A DNA stretch of 64,000 nt from assembly GCF_006345805.1 (NCBI RefSeq), contig NC_043010.1, positions 40,610,001 through 40,674,000 of the forward strand, written 5' to 3'. Source of the DNA: Octopus sinensis (taxonomy: Eukaryota). A program made the position numbers and the translations under genes. The first letter of the stretch is position 1. Each line of letters begins with the position of its first letter. Shown here piece after piece: positions 3,041-51,403 of the stretch. Under the pieces are notes generated by a model. It made no database searches, was not told the origin of the DNA, and saw only the letters and a program-made list of their open reading frames with translations.

Positions 3041-3444
3041 GACATAGCAACAAAAAAAAAATAATAATAATAATAACCATCATATTCGTTGCACGGAGAG
3101 ATTATCAAGATAAAGTACGGGTACTACTTCAATCTATTTTCCATAACATAGTGTTAACCAAGTGAATTCCGATTACATTGTGTCTGATTTAGGCACAGAG
3201 CGGCAGTTTCCAGCGGAGGGAAGAATTCGATACTTGTGACTTCAGTATTTGGATGGTGCTTTAGTTTATTGTGCCATGAAGGATGAAAACAATGTTCTCT
3301 TCGGTGTGATTTGAACTCAAAACATATGGCACTACAAATTAAGTATATGAACAGCATTAAATGAAAAGCGTTTATAATTTACGGAGATGTATTTGCATAG
3401 CAAATGACCTGATCTGAGATCGTGTGCTGAAACGAAAATCAATT

Positions 3445-3972: not shown

Positions 3973-4054
3973 GAAACGAAAAACAATTGCATCATGGAAG
4001 ATGTTTATAAGCCATTTAAAACACACACAAAAACCGTTAGATTCACTTCAACTT

Positions 4055-5313
4055 TTAAAAGAAACAAAAGCGACAAAAAAGGGGAGCGATGGAGTCGTCA
4101 GCCCGAAGAGAAGGAAGAAGGCAAAATCAAGGGAAGTGTTACAGAAAGCGACAGCAGAAGCAGAGAAGACAGACATAAATGATATAGAGCTGCTTGAAAC
4201 ACAAGAAGAGAAAAGACTAGAAGGTGCAAAGTCCAGTGAGTTTAAAAGTGAGCATAAAGGAGTCCTGATTTTTTACGAGAAATCAATAGATGTAGAGAAG
4301 AAAATATCAAAGTGGAAAAATTTGGTGAGAGTGAAACTGGGATCTTTTCGGTTTGAACGGCAGTTTATTCCAGCGGTGCCATATGAAATTGTCACCCATA
4401 ATTATGACCTTAGTATCGATCTATTGCATTTCAATCTGTTTTAGGGTTAGGGTTAGGGGTGGGAGGAAGGGTGTCTTTTTTTCTTCAGAAATGTAAATAA
4501 ACCCAATATGTTTCTTAAATGAAGGACATTTTCATACGGCACAGAATGTTTTCACCTCAATAGACGTCATTGATTGGTTGAAATAGCAGAAATTGAAGAA
4601 AAAAACAACCAATATCTTACAAACTATAGAAGTTTCTCAATACAGCCAAGAGAAAAAAAATGTTTTATAAACACATTCTACAAGTATATGAAGTTTAAAA
4701 ATGTTTAGTTACGTGGAAATTATTTTAAAAACTGCCGGTCAAACCTAGAAGATCCTGAAACTGCCTATGTGGAGGTTCCCAGAGTAGGAAAGGTGTGTGA
4801 TAGTGAGTGAGTCAGCGAGCAACGAACTGTGGAGACATTACAGAGAGTTTATGGCAGGAATGGATGGGCTTGTGTACTATAAGGCAAGGCCGCCGTTTGT
4901 GGACTATGCAAGGCTGGAACATTTCAAGATAGAGAAAATAAATTTGGAATAAACATTTTGGTTGAAAAAAAAATGTGAACTATTTCTGTTAAGAAGAAAA
5001 TTATGAAATTTTTTCGAGAATGTGTTGTGAGAAAAAAAATCGGTCGAGAATGCGTTGTGAAAAATAATGAGAAAAAAGATGAAGAGAAAAAACTGTCTAA
5101 ATGTAACGACTCGACTTCAGAGGTCGAGTGGGCATTCCGCCTCATTGTATCATCTTTTTCATAATTCATTCGTTTCTTTTGGTTTTACTTCTTTTCTATT
5201 TTTATTTTTAATTCCTCGATTTTATATCGTGTCTCGTTGTGTATTGTCTGTACGTGTTGTATTTGTCTTAAATATTTCGATTGTACGTCTGTTAATCGGT
5301 AATAAAAAAAAAC
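4055..5313 (+). mobile_element. Second truncated retroposon with homologous ORF end, interrupted by a MITE
   Basis: Removing the MITE restores the frame ..NLVRVKLPMWRFPE*ERCVIV..VYYKARPPFVDYARLEHFK..*. A T-rich 3' UTR ends in AATAAAAAAAAA. Confidence 0.6.
4340..4755. mobile_element. MITE with 27-bp TIRs and 8-bp TSD (Merlin- or hAT-like)
   Basis: TIRs GGATCTTTTCGGTTTGAACGGCAGTTT / AAACTGCCGGTCAAACCTAGAAGATCC. TSD TGAAACTG at 4332-4339 and 4756-4763. Internal (TTAGGG)3 at 4441-4458. Confidence 0.9.
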
Positions 5314-6444
5314 CGAAAATATTTTGATAAATTCAATTTTAATGTTGAAGTGAATCTAACAGTTTTTGTGCGTTTTTAAATGGCTTATAAACACCTTCCA
5401 CGGTGCAATTGTTTATAATTTAGGTAACATTAATTTCAAATTTTGACGCAAGGCCAACAGTTTCGAGGGAGTGGGCAAAGTTGACCTCGACAGATTTTGA
5501 ACTCAGAATTTACAGACCTACGAAATGCCACTAAGCATTATTGCCCAATAGGATAATGATTCTACCAACTCACCGTCTAATTTTTTTATTATTTTAGATA
5601 ATCAAATAAAATGCAAAGCAAATGTATAGAGACGGACATGGCTGAATAGTTAAAGAATTTGCTTCACAACTACGAGATCTTAATTCGATAAATGCATTCC
5701 CCGAATCTTCGAGATAAGTTACGTACTGTGGATGAATATGGGTAGCCAGACGTTGAATAGAATCACGTCCGACGTACCGTAATGAACGCATGTGTAGTCC
5801 AAACGTGCAGCTTTAATAGCAAAACAATTTTATCACACTAACGTTTCATGACAGTTACATTAAGGGTTCACGTGTTTATGGAATCATCAGCCAGTTCAGG
5901 CTTTGCATTTACTAAAAAACCAGACGCTCGTATACCCAAATAAATGCGAGGGTCTTTCAAAGTAATCTGTCCATATGAATAAAAATATAAATTTTGTGTG
6001 AACGTGAATAAGCAACGAAGTGGTGACACAGCAGATTGTAATTTATTTTTGAGTAACAGAAGTGAGAAGTTTAACTGCGCCCCACTGAGTATCCACCAAT
6101 AGCAACTGAGTATCCAGGCAAGAGCAACTGAGAACAGATGATAATCTTCCTTAAAATGATGAGACACTATTATGAACTGATATTAGACAAATCCTGAACA
6201 TAAAATGTATCGTGCAATTTTTATTTCTTTTATATTTCATAGTTAGGCAGTTTCTTCATTACGTATCAACGTATCATTATATATATATATACAAACTAAA
6301 AGACAGTTGCAATAAGTGTGTGCATATGAGATGGGAATATGGGGAATAAAATCACTATTAACTGATCCTCCTGTAATTTCTTTTAACAAAAGACATGAAC
6401 TTTTCCGACACCCCGGCGTTTATATACCTGGCTGAAGAGTGTTG

Positions 6445-10529: not shown

Positions 10530-13500
10530 CGTCTATTCACACGGTTCCTTGCACGCACAACACTCGTGCAACATACTTCCATCTCTTTTGGAACGTACAC
10601 TCTGACAGACACCTCTTCTCCAGCCACAGTTTCCTTTTCAAATGAAAAGAAAAAAAGGATCGTAAATTGTCACCAGAGATAAGTTGACTGTCTTAATTCC
10701 TTTTATCCTAGTATTCCATACAGCCTCTTTTGCTATTGCTACAACCGTGAGAAAACAATTCTTACCTTCGTTCGTTAGAACTCCCGGTGGGTCAATTTTT
10801 ATAATTGACTCAGTCGACAGCCGTACTCTTCCTTCGCCGGACAACAGATGTTCAGCATAAGCCCACATTTCAGTTATCTCCGGACACTGAACAATAGCGT
10901 GAGGGACGGTTTCCCTGTCCCCACCGCATCTTGGACAGGTCGGCGACTGACGTTTACCATGTCTTGCGAGCTTATCCCAAACGGGCAAGGCACCTCTGTA
11001 GCATTGCCAGGTTAAGGACATTTGGAAGTTGTCCAACGTTCTCAAACCGAATGTACGATGAAACAAGCTGTCCAGTTGAATAAATCTGAGACCTAGAGTC
11101 GACCCCAGGCCATCGTCGCATTCAGACTCTACCAACCCACTATATAAAATCCGTGTGGAACCCCCACCGCTGGCGTTGCCCGAGCGCCGGAACAGCAAGA
11201 GGGCCTTACGGCACTCTTTATGCCACTCACTCGACCTCGGTCTACGAGAACACCAGGCTTCCTGTTCGCAAAAACTCTTGAACTCAGGAAACATTGTCTG
11301 GCCAGCGGAGACCACACCCGTTCACTATCCAGGAGAATCCAGAGGTGCCTCAACCTCAACGCATGTCTGCGCATCATTAACCAAGGCATCCCTAAACCTC
11401 CATTTAAGGCTTTGACAGCAGACAGAGCGTTTCACAAGTGGCGACCTGCCCTTCCACAAAAAGCGAAAGAGCTGTCTCTCCAACCTGATCAACCACGAAT
11501 CCGGACAGGGCACGACAGTCAGGCGGTAGGTAATGACCGATGCGGTAAACAACTTGGCCACTTCCGCCCTCCCTTTCAGGGATAGCCACCGCCAAGACCA
11601 AGTCTTGACTACTGCAGCCACCCTGCTCAATACCTCCGTCCAGTTCTCTCTATCTGGAGGCCTGGTCCAAACCAGACTCCCAGCAACTTAACCGGTCCCT
11701 CCGTCCAGCGCCTAACAACACTGTCTGAAGGCATCGACTTGCCAACCCAGGTGCCGAGCTGCAAGCCGACCGACTTTTCCCGGTTAATCTTTGCTCCTGC
11801 TACCTCCTCGTAAGCCTCAATAGTCTTACCTACTTCACGTAGGCGTACCACTGTGGTTACACTGATAGTGATATCATCCGCGAAAGCCGTAACAAACTCC
11901 TCTAGTCCTGGTTCTCTCGGGATGCCACTCAACCTTTGCAGTAATGGCTCGAGAGCCATCACATACAAAAGTGTGTGAAAGCGGACATCCTTGACGAACC
12001 GAGCGTCTGATGCAGAACGGCTTCGAAAGGAAACCGTTCACCCGAACTATCGAGTCAATGTTGTGGTACAAAGCGATAACCACCTGAGGAAGCCAAGGCC
12101 CAGGCCAAACCGCGCAAGTACAGTCGCTAGGTATCGATGGTCAACCCTATCAAAAGCTTTAGACTGGTCCAAATGCACCAATGCCCCACCTTTGCCAGAT
12201 TTATTACCAAACCTCTCTATGGTATAGCGAATAAGATGGAGGGTATCCTGAATGGTTCTGCCTGGGATGGCCTCCCCGACTGTGCCTCCCCGACTATACC
12301 ATTCGCGACACGCGCCAACCTTTTTGCTAGAACCTTGGCCAAAATCTTCACTTCTGCGTTTAACAGAGTGATGGGCCTGAAATTCTCTAGAACGTCCCCC
12401 TTGTCCGGGTCCTTTCTGACCAACGTCACTACTCCCCGGCGCACAGATGGGGATAAACCCATTCTGTTTCCAGTTCGCGTACACGTCAGTCAGTAGTTGC
12501 CCGAACAAGTCTGGCATACATTTATACAGCTCGTAGGAAGACCATCAAGTCCCGGTGACTTACCCGCTTTACAATCGGCCAAAGCCTCCATCACCTCCTC
12601 AAGTGTGATTGGCCCTTCGCAAGACTCCGCATCCGACCCCGAGAGGCACGGCAGCCCGGTAAGAAAGTCCTCGAGGGCTCTCCCACCACCAGGACCGCCG
12701 TCACCCCCGAACAGCTGGGCGAAGTACTCCCGAAAGACCTCACACATTTTCTCGGTTCGTTTATCAAGACACCATTTTGATTCGTCAAAGACCGAATAGA
12801 GGAACTATTTCCTTGCCGAGCTTCCACCACTCGGGCCCATCCAGCGGCTTTGATTCCTTCACTTCCCATTGCACGTAACTTAGCTCTGGTAATACTTCCC
12901 ATGTGGTGGGCTTCAAGATGCTGGTTTAACTCCAGTCTTTTCACCCTCGCTTGGTCTGTATTACCAGTCCTCCAGGCTTCTTCTAGTTCCTTAACTAGAC
13001 CATCTCCTATTTTACGTCCCTTCTTAGCTAAACTTATGCTAAACCTAATAGACTCATATTTGATGGCTCTTTTTAGGGCGTACCACCATTTGTTATTAAT
13101 GATGGTACCTGTTAATGCCCTCTGTATTAACATCTTGATCCGCTTTCTGTACTCCTCAATCGCCAAAAGGGACGTATTGAGTTTCCAGTAGCCAGATCCC
13201 TGTCTATGCAACTTATCTACCGTCAGTTTACAGGTAACCATCTTGTGGTCACTGTAGCTGACTAGAAAAAACTGTGGACACTCAACTATGGACTTATCTT
13301 TTTCTCTAATTAAAATCCTATCTAGATATGTTCTGGTAGACCCGTCACTATTTGACCACGTCCACTGTGGAGTGTTCGGGTGCTCCAACCTATATGGATC
13401 TGCTAGCTGAAATTGACTTAGCAGATCCCGAAAGCCTGTGTTACATTTTCTGTTCATGTTCGAGTTTGAGCCAACACAATCTGTGTGTGCTGCACATATT

Positions 13501-13922
13501 GTATTAGAGTCTCCTAACACTACTAGTGAATGCGACGTGGCTAGGAACTTTCCTAGGCCACGAAAATATTCAGTTTGCGGGCCAATAATGTTTGGTGCAT
13601 AAATAGCGACCAGCCTGATTGTCTTGCCACAACTGAATGTCAAGTCGAGAACGACCAGCCTGCCTTCTGGGTCAGAAAAAACCAACTTTTTCTCGGCTAC
13701 CCGGTTTCTTTTTAGTAGGACCAACACCCACCCCGCCCGACTCGGAGAAACGTATTTCTCGTAGCCGTTCAGGAGGGGGAGCAGATCTCTTGGCCCCTTC
13801 ACCCGGGTTTCCGTTGCAACAATTACATCCAAATTTCTCGACCTGATGTCATTCAGAAAGCGTACTTGCTTCCAGCTTGACAACAGGCCATGAACATTTA
13901 AACAACCAATGTGAATAGCCAT
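10530..13922 (-). pseudogene. Tx1/L1 ORF2 (AP endonuclease + reverse transcriptase + CCHC), frameshifted
   Basis: IGCLNVHGL, VATET, AIYAPN, LGDSN, YLDRI, YSDH, GSGYWKLN, KSPGLDG, NFRPITLLN, LDQSKAFDRVDH, VRQGCPLS, AFADD, CPRCGGDRETVPHAIVQC across ORF pieces. 3' boundary approximate. Confidence 0.92.
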
Positions 13923-13933
13923 CACTTACCTGT

Positions 13934-26979: not shown

Positions 26980-26984
26980 TTTAC

Positions 26985-27500
26985 CCTAGTGCGTAACTCG
27001 TACTTATTTAATCGAGCCCGAAAGGATGAAAGGCAAAGGCGACCTCGGCGGAATTTGAACTCAGAACGTAACGGCTGACGAAATACCTATTTCTTTACTA
27101 CCCACAAGGGGCTAAACACAGAGAGGACAAACAAGGACAGGCAAACGGATTAAGTCGATTATATCGACCCCAATGCGTAACTGGTACTTATTTAATCGAG
27201 CCCGAAAGGATGAAAGGCAAAGTCAACCTCGGCGGAATTTGAACTCAGAACGTAACGGCTGGCGAAATACCTATTTCTTTACTACCCACAAGGGGCTAAA
27301 CACAGAGAGGACAAACAAGGACAGGCAAACGGACTAAGTCGATTATATCGACCCCAATGCGTAACTGGTACTTATTCAATCGACCCCGAAAGGATGAAAG
27401 GCAAAGTCGATCTCGGTGAAATTTGAACTCAGAACGTATCGGCAGACGAAATACTGCTAACCATTTCGACCGGCGTGCTAACGTTTCTGCCAGCTCACCG
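26985..27500 (-). mobile_element. SINE family A array: one head, three bodies
   Basis: On the minus strand each tail ..GTAAAGAAATA is followed directly by GGTATTTCG (junctions near 27088 and 27272). Confidence 0.92.
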
Positions 27501-35485: not shown

Positions 35486-38400
35486 TTAGATAAAAACTTA
35501 GTTGATTGGTCCAGGCCATGTCTAACTTAATAGCACCAGCTGATAGGATTATTTGAATCCTGTTTAATTCAAGTTTTATTTATGGTCCATTCAAATAGTG
35601 AGTTTTTGGTGGGTGAGTTGTATCCAATTATGGGTGGCTTGTCTGGTATAACTTGAAGGAATCTATCCAGACTCCGTTTAAAGTTGATGGGATCCGGTTC
35701 CTCTTTGATCTCTTTCGGGACAATGTTAAATAGGGCAGAGCCTGTTGAGAAAAAGAAATTATGTTGTAGTGTACATGTATGCTATGATCTTGAATTGGGC
35801 AGGGGACGTATGACCCGTGGTCCCAGTCTTGGATGAATCTTGAAGCTAATGTTCAAGTCGTTTGGGCAAAGTTGGCGGTATATTCTCCACATCGTACAAA
35901 TGACGTACCACTCACAGCGACGCTGGAGAGAGTAGAGTTTCAAGGCTTTAAGGCGAACCCAATAATCGAAAGCAGCCATGCCTTCAATTCGTTTAGTGAG
36001 TGCTCTCTGGGGTGATTCAATCCTCGAGATGTTTTGTCTTGTATGGGGAGACCACAGTGGGCAGCAATATTCAAGGTGTGGCCGTACAAAGGAGGAGAAA
36101 AGTGGTATGATGACACCTTGTTCTCTGGACCGGAAATTTCTTAAGATCCAGGAACTCATCCTACGAGCCATATCGACCTTCTTGTTGATGTGTGCACTCC
36201 AACTGAGATCGTCATCAACAATTACACCCAGGTCTCTGATATTGTTAGAGGCTGTGAGCGGTTCCCCCGAAGGAAGAGAGTATGGTTGTTTTAGTGAGGA
36301 ATTTCTTCCAAAATGCATCAGCTCAAATTTTCCCTCGTTCAGTTGCATTTTATTTCTGTCTGCCCATTGACTCACAGCATATAGATCAGACTGGAGTTGA
36401 GTTCGGTCTGCTTCTTCATTGACGATTTGCTGGAGCTTAGTGTCATCAGCAAATATGTTCACTTTGCAGTAATGTACGACACTGGAAAGGTCGTTTATGT
36501 AGATTATGAAGAGTAGCGGACCCAAGGCAGTCCCCGAGGGACACCGCTGGTGACTTTTGCTGGGCTTGAGTGGACTCCATCCACTACAACATGTTGTGTT
36601 CTATTCGCCAGGAAATACTTGATCCAGTGTAGAACTTTTCCGCGGATTCCAACATTTGCCAATTTTGAGAGTAGGATATTATGGTCTACCCTGTCGAACG
36701 CTTTACTGAAGTCAAGATATATGACATCAGAGTTCGAACCTGTTCCCAAGGCTTTGAGTACATCTTCAATGTGGTGTAAGAGCTGTGTTAGACAGTCCCT
36801 GCCACAGCGAAAGCCATGCAGATTTGCATTTAGGAGTTTGTGGGTCTCCAGGAAGTCAGCTATCCTTGATCTTAACACTCTTTCAAACACTTTGATGAAG
36901 TGGGAGGTGAGTGAGATTGGGCGATAGTTGAGTGCGAGGGATCTGTTTCCCTGTTTGAAAACCGGGATGACTGACTGGGATAGAAACTGTTTTGGTATAT
37001 AACCTGCATCTAACGAATTTCTCCAGAGGTTGGTCAGAGGGACTGCAAGTTGGTGTCTACATTCCTTCAGGAGACTAGCCGGGAATCTATCAGGACCTAC
37101 AGCAGAGTAGTATTTGACCTCATTTATTGCTGCTGTGATGTCAGTGGCAGTGAAGGTTATGTCTGAAATTTTATGTTGGGAGTCAACTTCGTTCGCTTCT
37201 CTTGCGTCAATATCAGTGGGAACACTAAAGACAGAGCAGTATTGTTTCTGCAGTATTTCTGCCATTTCTTTAGCATCGTGTTGGGGAATGCCGTTATCAT
37301 CAATCAATGGCCCAATGGGTGAGACAGTGGTTCTATGCTTATTTGCATAAGAATAGAACACTTTTGGGTTCTGTTTGATGTTTTTGATTACCCACTGTTC
37401 CTCCACAGCTCTTTGATTTTCAATGGAGGTTTTCATGTCGTTCTGTAGATGAAGTTTTTCCAGCTCTAGCATTTTCATTGTTGTTGAATTTGGATGTTGT
37501 ATGTGGGAATATTTTAATTGGTTGATTTTTTGTTGAGTCTTTTGATGCGCCTGATGAGTGTTTTTTTTTTCTTTTAAGAGAGCCGGTTTCTGTTTGTGTT
37601 AGTAGATTTCGTGGGAGCGTGTTTAGAGCATGTTTTCAAAGTGCTGCCATGCGGTCTCAGTATGGGTGGAATTGAGAGTAAAAGACTAGTCCATGCAAGA
37701 CAGATCCTTTCTGATTGCTCCCCAGTCCGCTTTGTGGAAGTTTATGTTGTCAAATGAGTGCCATGGAGTGGGATTGGCTGGTTTGGTTTTTATATGTCGG
37801 GAATTGAAATTGCAGAGTATCATGTCGTGGTCTGAGAGGAGAGTTTTTTCAACTGAAATACTGTGAACGAAGCTAGAGTGATTGGTCAATACCAGATCCA
37901 AGATCGTTTTATTCTGTCTCGTTGATTCGAGCACTAGCTGAGTCAGGAAGTATTCATCCATTAGATTAAAGAGCAGTTCTGCTGCTGCTCTATCTGACGT
38001 AGAGCATTTGCCTAACTTCAGAGATTTTGTGGGCCAGTTCACCAGAGGGCGGTTAAAATCACCCATCACTAGTATGTTTCCGGAGTGGTACTTCCGAAGG
38101 AAGGACTTGACTTTACTAAGGCACTCTTCAAAGCACTTTAGAGGTGCTTGGGGAGGCCTGTAAAGACCAACAATGATTATGTCCTTGGCCTTGCTGAATA
38201 GTGATACAGATTCACAATAGCCATTGGAAAATATGTCCTTGGCATCAAGTGAAAAGGAGTCATGGATAAAGATGACTGTCCCTCCCTTATTTCGGTCTGT
38301 GCGATCCGCACGAACAATAGTGAAATCTTTTATTTTCACCTCGTCGTCCATATGGCTGTTGTTCAGGTGAGTCTCGGTAAGGATCTCGGTAAGGATAAAG

Positions 38401-38505
38401 AAAGGGAAGCAATGTGCCGTTTCGGTAAGCCAACTCTCTATATATGGGATCTTCCATTTTTGGGCAATAATTGATGGGTTGATGCCACGTACATTTAACA
38501 GGAAG

Positions 38506-38508
<3 letters not shown>
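35481..38508 (-). mobile_element. 5'-truncated CR1-group LINE (APE + RT), frameshifted
   Basis: LLNVRGI, GLYRPP, MGDFN, LDLVLTN, LSDH, NYRPISLTS, VIYLDFSKAFDRVDH, LFIIYINDL, IFADDTKL, RPHLEYC..WSP. 3' end (CTAAGTTTT)2. (TA)n on both sides. Confidence 0.93.
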
Positions 38509-38553
<45 letters not shown>

Positions 38554-48804: not shown

Positions 48805-48933
<129 letters not shown>

Positions 48934-48963
48934 TACTTTATTTAAAGCAGCAGAAAATTCAAC

Positions 48964-49010
48964 AAAACCTGTTACTCTGAGCTTCCCGTTGCCGTTCATC
49001 GGACAGTTTT
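48964..49010 (-). ncRNA. Minimal hammerhead motif, U4C variant (decayed)
   Basis: AAAACTGT-CCGATGA-ACG gcaa CGG-GAAG-CTCAGAG-TA-ACAGGTTTT. Confidence 0.55.
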
Positions 49011-49069
49011 TGCTAGAATCGGTTATATATATATATAATATATATATGTATATATATATATATGTATGT

Positions 49070-50380
49070 ATAAAATATATATATAAAAATACAAAATTGG
49101 GACAAGAACGCAAAACACTCAGAGACGACACAAAAAACGGACGGGTCATTCGAAGCCTCTAATCTTCAGTCAAGAACCGGATCATCCTCGCAACTTCGGC
49201 TGATTAATCTTGAGATCGCTCCGATCCGACCAGCCCCAAGGAAAAACTAAGTTACGAACATTAGATTTCTTGGAAAAAGGATCGAATGTATGCGAAACAA
49301 GGACAGAAAAACGGACGATGCCATACGAATATAAATACAAAAAACAATAATAGTAATAACAGGACAAAAACAGCGGGTGTCTTACGAATTTAGACAGTTC
49401 AACTTAGCTTAGCTGGCGTATTTGGAAAAAATGCCTTTACGGCAGACGAAGAAATCGATGTTGTCGTGGTGGTGGTCAGAAGCCGAAAGGCTAGTTGACT
49501 GGCGGTCACGTGAGAGGAGAAGAGAGAGAAAAAAAGGGGGCAAAGGAATCAAAGAGAGAGAGAAAAAGAGGGACAAAGGCACCAAAGGGGAGGGGGAGAA
49601 GAGAGAGAAAGAAGGAATTAAAGAGGGGAGAAGAAAGAGAGCGTGCCAAGGATTGGCTTGACGACAGAAACAGTGAGGTGCAAAGTGAGAAAGACAGAGA
49701 AATGTGAGAGAGTGAGGGAAGAGGAGACCAAAGAATCAGAGGCGAGAAAAGTGAAAGACAGAGACTAGTGAAGTATAGGGAAAGTGTGTGAAGAAGTCGT
49801 ACGATAATCGAATGCTTACATACATAAGAGAACAAGATATACGTTACGCCGCAATAATATATGTATAAAAAATATATATAAAAATACAAAATGGGACAAG
49901 AACGCAAAACACTCAAAGAGACGACACAAAAAACGGACGGGTCATTCGAAGCCTCTAATCTTCAGTCAAGAACCGGATCATCCTCGCAACTTCGGCTGAT
50001 TAATTTTGAGATCGCTCCGATCCGACCAGCCCCAAGGAAAAACTAAGCTACGAGCATTAGATTTCTTGGAAAAAGGATCGAATGTATGCGAAACAAGGAC
50101 AGAAAAACGGACGATGCAATACGAATATAAATACAAAAAACAATAATAGTAATAACAAGACAAAAACAGCGGGCGTCTTACGACTTTAGACAATTCAACT
50201 TAGCTTAGCTGGCGTATTTGGAAAAAAATACCTTTACAGCAGACGAAGAAATCAATGTTCTCGTGGCACTGGTCAGAAGCCGAAAGGCTGGTTGACCAGC
50301 GACACGTGAGAGGAGAAGAGAGAGAAAAAAAGGGGGCAAAGGAATCAAAGAGAGAGAGAAAAAGAGGGACAAAGGCACCA
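49070..50380. repeat. Partial tandem of a structured about 520-bp non-coding repeat
   Basis: 49070-49590 and 49862-50380 are colinear with scattered substitutions. Confidence 0.9.
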
Positions 50381-50477
50381 GGGTAAGCACATAAATGTGA
50401 AACAAGGTGAGAAAAAATAGTACTCAAATACCATAGGTAGAGTAATATGCTTTATTTAAAGGCAGCAGAAATATAAG

Positions 50478-50524
50478 AAAAGCCGTTACTCAGAGTTTCA
50501 CGTTCCCGTTCGTCGGCCAGTTTT
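50478..50524 (-). ncRNA. Minimal hammerhead motif, U4C variant
   Basis: CCGACGA-ACG ggaa CGT-GAAA-CTCTGAG-TA. Inverted truncated copy on + at 50604-50629. Confidence 0.65.
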
Positions 50525-50625
50525 GTTAATTGAGAAAGATAGCTGCGCATGCTATGCCTATGATCCACTATAGTTTGTTTTCTTTCTCAATTAACAAAAC
50601 TCTCCGACGAACGGGAACGTGAAAC

Positions 50626-51062
50626 TCTCCTGGGGCTAAAAAGCTACAGTAACACTCCCACCCCCAGTGGTTAGCCATACTAAGATGGCTAGTATACTTT
50701 ACGTTGTCGAGCGCTTACTGTTTACATCTCGCTCAGAGATTTATTATTGCTTTCAGACCGTTTTTCGAAATCAGTGACAGTGGTTACTGGGAAAAACATT
50801 AAATAGATATTCGCAAACAGGTCTCTCTTATCGAAAACCCGTGATTAGCGGGTGTTGACAAGAGACAATAATCTCGAAACTGCAGTCCATGCGTATCACT
50901 TAGGTTTTCGAGAGGGGATGACCTCCCTTTGCGAATATCATTAAAGGGCACAGGATTGTGTCTAAAGCCAGCTGGAGACGATGATCTCCTGGGGTTAAAA
51001 AGCTACAGTAACACCCCCCACCCCCAGTGGTTAGCCATATTAAGATAGCTAGTATACTTTAC
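50626..51062 (+). mobile_element. Terminally redundant 359-nt retrozyme/Penelope-like unit
   Basis: 77-78-bp direct repeats at 50626-50702 and 50985-51062. Internal hammerhead and nested helices. Ends in (TA)n. Confidence 0.8.
50848..50894 (+). ncRNA. Minimal hammerhead ribozyme, U3-A8 variant
   Basis: GCGGGTG-TTGACAA-GAGA caataa TCTC-GAAA-CTGCAG-TC-CATGCGT. Predicted cut after 50887. Confidence 0.8.
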
Positions 51063-51077
51063 ATTATATATATATAT

Positions 51078-51403
51078 AAACAATTGCAGCGTGGAAGGTG
51101 TTTGTAAGCCATTTAAGAAACACACAAAAGCCGTTCGATTCGCTTCAACATTTAAGTTTAATTTGTCAAAATATTTTCATCGCTAAAATCCGCGACCTGT
51201 TCACTGACAAAAATCCGCCAGTGAACAGGCCGCAGATTTTAGCGCTGAAAATATTTTGACAAATTAAACTTAAATGTTGAAGCGAATCGAACAACTTTTG
51301 TGTGTTTCTTAAATGGCTTACAAACACCTTCCACGCTGCAATTGCTTTCGTTTCAGCACACGATCTCAGATCAAATTACTTGCTATGCGAGTACATCTCC
51401 GTA

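Follow-up and report, generated by a model that had tools for sequence, protein, structure and literature searches.

A non-coding hammerhead repeat family of the octopus genome, very probably mobilised by Penelope-like enzymes

Introduction

Positions 50626 to 51062 of a 64,000-nt stretch of the Octopus sinensis genome (NC_043010.1, positions 40,610,001 to 40,674,000; hereafter, the window) raise the question of what kind of element leaves a hammerhead motif between two direct repeats, in a unit of about 360 nt with no coding capacity. The initial annotation had viewed this locus as a rod-like, terminally redundant, retrozyme- or viroid-like unit, that is, the greater-than-unit-length cDNA of a structured and possibly circular RNA.

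Insertions of Penelope-like elements (PLEs) are recognised by partial tandems, 5′ arms in inverted orientation, a tail that may be present at one end, and a preference for microsatellite targets (PMC8557442, PMC3846280), and in vitro experiments have demonstrated that the tail lies between two internal reverse transcription (RT) start sites (PMC11167929). Animal retrozymes have been proposed to be PLE derivatives, on the basis of their co-occurrence in vertebrates and of their similarity to pLTRs (Li, Clavereau and Pollet 2026, 10.64898/2026.07.22.740005). The studies consulted here leave open which enzyme mobilises animal retrozymes, whether the template is their circular form, and whether hammerheads of the PLE type cleave in vivo. 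We found no published description of cephalopod retrozymes or of the family reported here, which paper supplements, Repbase, or Dfam may list; the main text of a recent octopus repeat annotation contains neither ‘ribozyme’ nor ‘retrozyme’ (PMC13282606).

Results

The window locus is a truncated copy of a repeat

The locus (50626..51062, plus strand) is a 1.2-unit, 5′-truncated copy of a dispersed repeat family that has no ORF. The insertion stops at a tail-less 3′ end, called end A, the last 3 nt of which are ambiguous (to 51065). It starts with an upstream, pLTR-like partial unit (50626..50705, +) comprising two small hairpins and a TATA-like stretch of putative function, which is followed by one full unit of 360 nt in the phase that begins behind end A (50706..51065, +). 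The direct repeats were as described initially: 50626-50702 and 50985-51062, the latter (+) being the 3′ repeat copy that stops at end A, are 77 and 78 nt long, about 93% identical, and spaced by 359-360 nt, with 5 mismatches and 1 indel across an overlap of 80 nt. A 46-nt “tail” segment (50706..50751, +) separates the two fixed 3′ ends of the family, A (50705/51062-65) and B (~50751). The 3′ end is adjoined by a (TA)n-rich target (51063..51078), of the type that the family prefers.

The terminal redundancy turned out not to be a fixed property. The 5′ ends of other copies vary, and many copies run 46 nt further 3′; position 50626 is thus merely the truncation point of this copy, and the 77-nt repeat is a pLTR-like partial tandem rather than an LTR. 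In agreement with the annotation, no ORF of at least 100 aa overlaps the copy. Relative to the majority sequence of its lineage it has 8 differing positions and 1 deletion, and its stem I has a private mismatch at G50851. No target duplication was seen at the locus. It contains one hammerhead only and no two-hammerhead tandem; judging by its sequence, the window copy is probably inert.

The family comprises three lineages

We searched the 2.7-Gb host genome, which is rich in (TA)n and retrotransposon debris, for tandem and other copies. This revealed a dispersed family with a few dimers and trimers, the longest array amounting to 3.2 units. The units are 352-360 nt long and non-coding, with a GC content below 50% (43-47%) and no LTR-type fixed termini. 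Three lineages were distinguished: Y, to which the window copy belongs (355-360 nt), O, which is older (358 nt), and Z, which is young (352 nt). Their majority sequences are 67-78% identical to one another. Individual copies match the majority of their lineage at 91-98%, those of lineage Z being near-identical (98%).

The DNA search yielded 81 matches from the best 40 of 3648 candidates, and the sibling lineages O and Z surfaced through motif searches and as chance neighbours. Exact searches returned 818 matches for a 27-mer of lineage Y, 592 for a 26-mer of lineages O and Z, and 261 exact U3-A8 hammerheads in the genome, compared with 0 matches for the reversed-pattern controls; these numbers differ from numbers of insertions, as inverted and tandem arms count twice. 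There was no tRNA gene at the three loci checked and no match to the family in a phage collection. Contigs of three runs guessed to be RNA and of one unlabelled run indicated presence alone and were set aside as evidence, and a bacterial promoter scan was disregarded as irrelevant to an animal host.

The hammerhead covaries among lineages

The ribozyme boxes were located at the positions claimed in the annotation. The type I hammerhead (50841..50899, +) has an internal loop in stem I, a core box carrying U3 and A8 (50855-50861, +), stem II (50862-50875, +), the GAAA box (50876-50879, +), and a palindromic, self-complementary stem III (50879-50886, +), with a predicted cut after C50887. Throughout the family the core boxes and helices I to III follow the type I order, and the core is intact in 49/60 Y, 33/48 O, and 35/37 Z hammerheads. 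With a 6-bp helix I, a 4-bp helix II, and a 2-bp helix III with a palindromic tetraloop, the layout is that described as the canonical metazoan type (PMC4209133). The Rfam hammerhead models gave no match at the gathering score and none at E≤5 on four loci.

The 3-8 pair is U3-A8 in 55/60 Y copies and C3-G8 in 45/48 O and 36/37 Z copies. The U3-A8 core is not unusual, since it has been described in Schistosoma PLE hammerheads (PMC4209133) and is also the core of minimal hammerheads at 8 of 30 GIY-YIG loci of the same genome.

In an alignment of 11 real copies, 10 of 20 pairs had changed on both sides and 95% of the cells were paired; the slid controls gave 1-3 pairs and 18-54% of paired cells. 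As the counts come from three lineages, they reflect few events. One stem II pair, counted by eye among the 100 Y hammerheads listed, was G-C in 75, A-U in 20, G-U in 2, and mismatched in 3. The stem III hexamer is self-complementary in 57/60 Y, 28/48 O, and 33/37 Z copies, even though its sequence differs from one lineage to another. Covariation across copies, whose absence the annotation had held to speak against its reading, is therefore present, with compensation at the 3-8 pair and in stems I and II. By this pattern of substitutions, the hammerhead is under selection.

Folding predicts cleavage of dimers

The window unit folds more stably than shuffled sequences, with z scores of -5.4 as a linear molecule and -6.2 as a circle. 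Of the nested helices proposed to extend stem I, the four inner ones were recovered in the circular fold with pair probabilities of 0.99-1.0, whereas the outermost (50749/50960) was not (0.0); 50749-53 pairs instead with 50998-51002 (probability 0.93). The term rod-like had to be abandoned. The long imperfect helix capped by the hammerhead (50806..50939, +) spans 134 of the 360 nt, and circular folds of every lineage contain 7-9 hairpin loops and are branched. According to the folding, this helix places the two ends of the cut-to-cut monomer side by side.

In the circular monomer, stem III has a probability of 0.0, and adopting the active hammerhead fold costs the monomer 4.2-9.9 kcal/mol. In the dimer, the double hammerhead lies 0-5.8 kcal/mol above the minimum, and two single hammerheads lie 12.6-21.2 kcal/mol above it. 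Cleavage is thus predicted to take place in dimers or multimers and to be blocked in monomers and circles. In a recent test of frog retrozymes, 1 of 9 predicted dimers was cleaved (10.64898/2026.07.22.740005). For the unit as a whole, the consensus fold reached -69.4, compared with -25.5 (sd 5.0) for column shuffles. Compensatory changes affected 11 of 79 pairs, with a null mean of 4.8 and a null maximum of 12, in an alignment of four majority rows from three lineages, which suggests modest covariation outside the hammerhead.

Insertions have the anatomy of PLEs

We mapped 160 family loci onto multimers of the unit and kept 150 distinct insertions located away from locus edges; most loci had been chosen by similarity, which favours long copies. 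Of the 229 outer 3′ ends, 93 coincided with A, 101 with B, which lies 46 nt downstream, and 35 with neither; the 5′ ends were scattered. More than half of the insertions (79/150) were head-to-head, and when both ends could be classified (55 events) nearly all combined an A with a B end (51 A+B, 3 BB, 1 AA). A (TA)n stretch was found within 6 nt of 103/194 A or B ends, compared with 5.9% of 6425 control positions. Target duplications of at least 7 nt and not purely TA flanked 38/150 insertions, as opposed to 7/150 in mismatched-flank controls. Most copies are dispersed and 0.3-1.5 units long, and 92/150 insertions in this length-biased sample were longer than one unit. Two or more hammerheads in tandem were present in 10/150 events, and also in L258-L261. 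Of 20 loci taken in coordinate order, 5 exceeded one unit and 2 had two whole hammerheads in tandem.

The family thus displays the features of PLE-type insertion, namely partial tandems with an inverted, 5′-truncated arm and an optional tail of 46 nt. Given this anatomy, we consider it very probable that we are dealing with a non-autonomous hammerhead family mobilised by PLEs, in other words a metazoan non-LTR retrozyme served in trans by PLE enzymes. By analogy with the PLE tail (PMC11167929), the bounds of the 46-nt segment would be two internal RT start sites. As far as sequence goes, the family qualifies as a metazoan non-LTR retrozyme (unit of 150-450 nt, tandem two-hammerhead copies, duplications).

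Four single-orientation copies (L027:1433, L097:2482, L128:348, and L182:1501) have their 5′ end abutting the same end of another abundant repeat. These junctions may represent chimeras or a preferred target.

Neighbours of the window copy

To the left, the window copy adjoins E2 (50377-50628), a head-to-head insertion of a second high-copy family with PLE ends, of which a partial copy is found near 48933-49020. The E2 family (L197-L225) has a 68-nt tail, TA targets, and a hammerhead-like motif in which position 4 of the core is a majority C and stem III is quasi-palindromic; no PLE ORF was detected within 1.5 kb of its copies in 30 loci. The right arm of E2 is cut short by the retrozyme copy, whose 5′ end is fused to it via 3 shared nt, about 5 nt before the predicted cut of E2. 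A jump of the window copy onto the exact cleavage end of E2 was discarded, as the junction is about 5 nt short and shows 3 nt of microhomology; a template jump and a later deletion are indistinguishable there.

To the right, E4 (51078-51402) is a head-to-head palindrome of 129 nt that is extended on one side by 55 nt. E4-type sequences also occur at 3381-3437, 3973-4058, and 5315-5414 of the window and in L010, L131, L164, and L178; it looks like a third PLE-type end. Rfam miRNA matches on E2 and E4 were below threshold and reflect their palindromes. Further upstream, E1 (49062-50380) is a partial tandem of a 796-nt unit whose 523-nt overlap is 95% identical. Its first 300 nt are repeated in other loci, and it has no ORF and no PLE protein match. 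E1, E2, E4, and the retrozyme copy form a stack of TA-associated insertions. The window also contains two broken LINEs on the minus strand (10638-13925 and 35782-38552; endonuclease, RT, and zf-RVT domains) and a SINE-like repeat with a 184-nt tandem (26983-27454).

Templates of the insertions

The haplotypes of tandem overlaps were predominantly the same (same/different, 165/19 for Y, 32/1 for Z, 58/6 for O), whereas random pairs differ at 39-46%. As overlaps and inverted arms of one insertion nearly always share their subfamily haplotype, both stem from one kind of RNA. Together with the dispersal, the lack of coding capacity, and the covarying hammerhead, the shared haplotype of tandem units agrees with the initial view of a retrozyme-like, greater-than-unit cDNA of a structured RNA. 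At L009 (G000:C2:156317716-156318406), tandem units of two Y subfamilies are joined (9 same, 11 different). Such a mosaic is impossible from one rolling circle and shows a template switch.

Of 202 segments with an A or B end, 130 reached or crossed the first cut site, with no excess of termination there. The cDNAs thus cross the cut site freely, which argues against cleaved linear monomers as the main template. We also rejected a strict barrier for 5′ ends at the cut site, since 7 of the 78 long segments continue for over 30 nt past the second cut. Beyond one unit, termination is steep, at about 0.3 per 30 nt. Close to the core, in the interval from -12 to +11, we counted 23 of 243 5′ ends (p 0.07 relative to a uniform distribution, 3e-5 relative to the flanking density), 11 of which sit 5-12 nt upstream of the cut; this enrichment is at most suggestive.

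Typical copies end at A or B, so that the sole internal start site would be near the 5′ end and a linear transcript would give short cDNAs. Long insertions must therefore come from a circle, a rare multimer, or a template jump. A circle need not be involved, since Naiads, which are devoid of hammerheads, make the same partial tandems and more-than-unit insertions (PMC8557442), and since the Anolis PLE acts mainly on uncut RNA in vitro and its hammerhead mutants still insert (PMC11167929). The same family and the same PLE machinery might therefore operate with no circle, on an uncut linear multimer made from rare tandem loci or by re-starting or jumping of the RT, the hammerhead being kept for transcript trimming or as part of a protein-binding fold. 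The existence of dimers and trimers (the 10 events above; L172, L259, and L261), the switch between templates at L009, and the steep termination past one unit are in line with this mechanism. Nevertheless, the linear transcript of a typical 1.2-1.5-unit copy, whose only internal start site would be near the 5′ end, could yield more-than-unit cDNA only by way of a jump, and the mechanism sits less well with the conservation across three lineages of the predicted dimer-only cleavage and end-juxtaposing folds. In addition, mussel and axolotl retrozymes of similar size accumulate as circles, and these are closed by RtcB in vitro (PMC7229834). We regard a route without a circle as possible but rather unlikely. 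That the PLE-served retrozyme follows a path that includes a circular RNA template is the reading that we favour, with some reserve.

Search for an autonomous partner

The copies could also be truncated pLTR ends of an autonomous PLE that our searches missed, with no independent spread. Their anatomy is indeed that of PLE ends, and the neighbour E2 resembles such an end. However, copies that extend upstream run into another unit of 352-360 nt and never into an ORF. No RT plus GIY-YIG ORF was found between family units, which are thus not an autonomous PLE, and no copy proved to be the pLTR of an ORF, contrary to the permanent attachment to a Penelope ORF that the annotation had considered as a simpler explanation. 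Of the 196 loci screened, a number that includes duplicates, 5 distinct ones had PLE coding fragments nearby. At the four that were inspected (L057, L064, L100, and L139) they are separate insertions, which we rejected as partners because they are separated by other repeats, lie on the opposite strand, or have their own, different pLTR; at the fifth locus, the fragment is about 0.9 kb away. Among the 200 motif matches listed, same-strand neighbours were 351-354 nt or more than 10 kb apart with the exception of one 4.35-kb pair, and neither this pair nor a 6-kb pair (L256, L257) encloses a PLE ORF.

The GIY-YIG search, in which 150 of 5029 candidates were scored, identified several Neptune-like PLE families (CxxC linker, RT plus GIY-YIG) with long open frames; those of L062, L063, L064, and L065 measure 775-883 aa and are preceded by a second ORF. 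Profile comparison of the unit with the pLTRs of 30 GIY-YIG loci and with 5 longer stretches, a set based on those 150 of 5029 candidates, gave no pLTR match. A weak 130-nt match at L047 was dismissed, being on the opposite strand and behind the end of the element. Even with this fraction of candidates scored, we hold it to be very unlikely that the copies are only pLTR ends.

One of the Neptune-like families ends in (TA)n and has two 3′ ends about 35 nt apart and a minimal U3-A8 hammerhead. Its ~35-nt tail terminates in a small hairpin and a TTATTAT-like stretch, like that of the retrozyme.

Replicon and DNA transposon readings

An endogenised viroid-like or Obelisk-like replicon, propagating from RNA to RNA, would share with the family its size, stable fold, hammerhead, and strong divergence with compensation between lineages. 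Against it, the copies form discrete, dated bursts (91-98% identical to the lineage majority), and their ends are those of PLE target-primed insertions. Besides, the fold is branched, the hammerhead is found in one polarity (plus strand only in the scan of L001), and the minus strand was less stable than the plus strand in all five sequences folded. The viroid-like part of the annotation was given up on these grounds, and we deem such an origin highly improbable. A DNA element (Helitron/Helentron or MITE) or a satellite carrying a hammerhead by chance is scarcely credible, for although the insertions are palindromic and lineage Y has CTAG-like letters behind a 3′ hairpin, lineages O and Z have not kept the CTAG, and the varying 5′ truncations and palindrome centres, the pair of fixed 3′ ends, the target duplications, and the covarying catalytic core all speak against it and rule out a Helitron.

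A possible fossil of cleavage

One retrozyme copy, L068/L267 (L068:1363-1712, minus strand), starts 6 nt behind one predicted cut and stops precisely at the following one. At that second cut it continues into a 5′-truncated LINE of the APE type on the same strand, and the two halves are of similar age, both about 95-96% identical to their relatives. The rest of the unit is absent beyond the LINE within the stretch examined, and there is no clear target duplication. Two targeted genome-wide pattern searches, with an expected recall of about 45%, yielded no second cut-end copy: of their 4 matches only L068 is a true end, and the remaining three (G000:C1:50687281, C9330:30102, and C4414:7874) seem to have lost 1 nt of the cut dinucleotide. 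They might carry ligation scars, but chance could also give this number.

U6/LINE-1 chimeras arise by RtcB ligation (PMC6789731). Like them, L068/L267 is the copy of an RNA with a predicted cyclic-phosphate end joined to a 5′-truncated LINE on the same strand; unlike them, it is one case, for which template switching or chance truncation may also account. We therefore describe this single locus, found after the fact, as a possible fossil of cleavage.

Discussion

Our data are compatible with the following cycle. Transcription of rare tandem copies would produce RNAs of two or more units. Two adjacent palindromic stems III would then pair, and the resulting double hammerhead would release unit-length RNA, whereas the monomer or the circle would, from its folding, stay uncut. 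The long helix would hold the 5′-OH and cyclic-phosphate ends for a host ligase such as RtcB, as extrapolated from the mussel and axolotl retrozymes. Finally, a PLE RT/GIY-YIG protein would nick TA-rich DNA and begin cDNA synthesis internally on the RNA, at either of two positions separated by 46 nt. This would account for 3′ ends with and without the tail, for the head-to-head arms, and for cDNAs longer than one unit; the fixed ends are observed.

More tentatively, the family might be a circular-RNA parasite of PLE enzymes whose genomic copies record all stages of the cycle: a hammerhead selected in all three lineages for dimer-only cleavage, with a switch from C3-G8 to U3-A8, two-site internal priming by a PLE RT that proceeds past one unit, and a monomer cleaved by itself at both ends, ligated through its cyclic phosphate to LINE RNA, and retrotransposed (L068/L267). 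This full scenario is doubtful as a whole; if true, the genome would bear witness to in vivo cleavage by such hammerheads and to the use of retrozyme circles as templates by PLEs.

The kind of element is already known, and the gain lies in mechanistic detail rather than in a new system. The family gives evidence for PLE mobilisation from the anatomy of its ends, independently of sequence homology. It also allows two putative RT start sites to be named to the nucleotide, and the young Z copies (98%), with the natural core variants, are suited to a test with a PLE protein.

The family has in common with EN+ PLEs partial tandems, head-to-head arms, a tail on one end, AT/TA targets, short target duplications, and a hammerhead in the repeat (PMC3846280, PMC8557442, PMC11167929, PMC4209133). 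In contrast to them it has no RT-GIY-YIG ORF, and its tail is 46 nt long rather than 30-40. Its hammerhead is canonical, whereas that of the Neptune-like PLEs of the same genome is minimal. The dependence on PLEs proposed by Li, Clavereau and Pollet (10.64898/2026.07.22.740005) is shared, but here the evidence is the anatomy of the insertions, and pLTR homology was not found in 35 PLE-bearing loci. By the two-hammerhead criterion of that study, the window locus would not count as ‘active’.

The closest relatives in kind are the metazoan non-LTR retrozymes (Cervera and de la Pena 2020, PMC7229834). For those, circles and cleavage are known, whereas they are predicted here. The octopus family also differs in that it is mostly dispersed as copies of 0.3-1.5 units with inverted arms instead of long arrays (3.2 units at most), and in that its lineage Y has a U3-A8 core. 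It shares with them a non-coding unit of about 350 nt (350-390 nt in mussel, 330/350 nt in axolotl), a GC content below 50%, a type I hammerhead layout, a stable self-paired fold, target duplications of more than 4 bp, and co-existence with autonomous PLEs.
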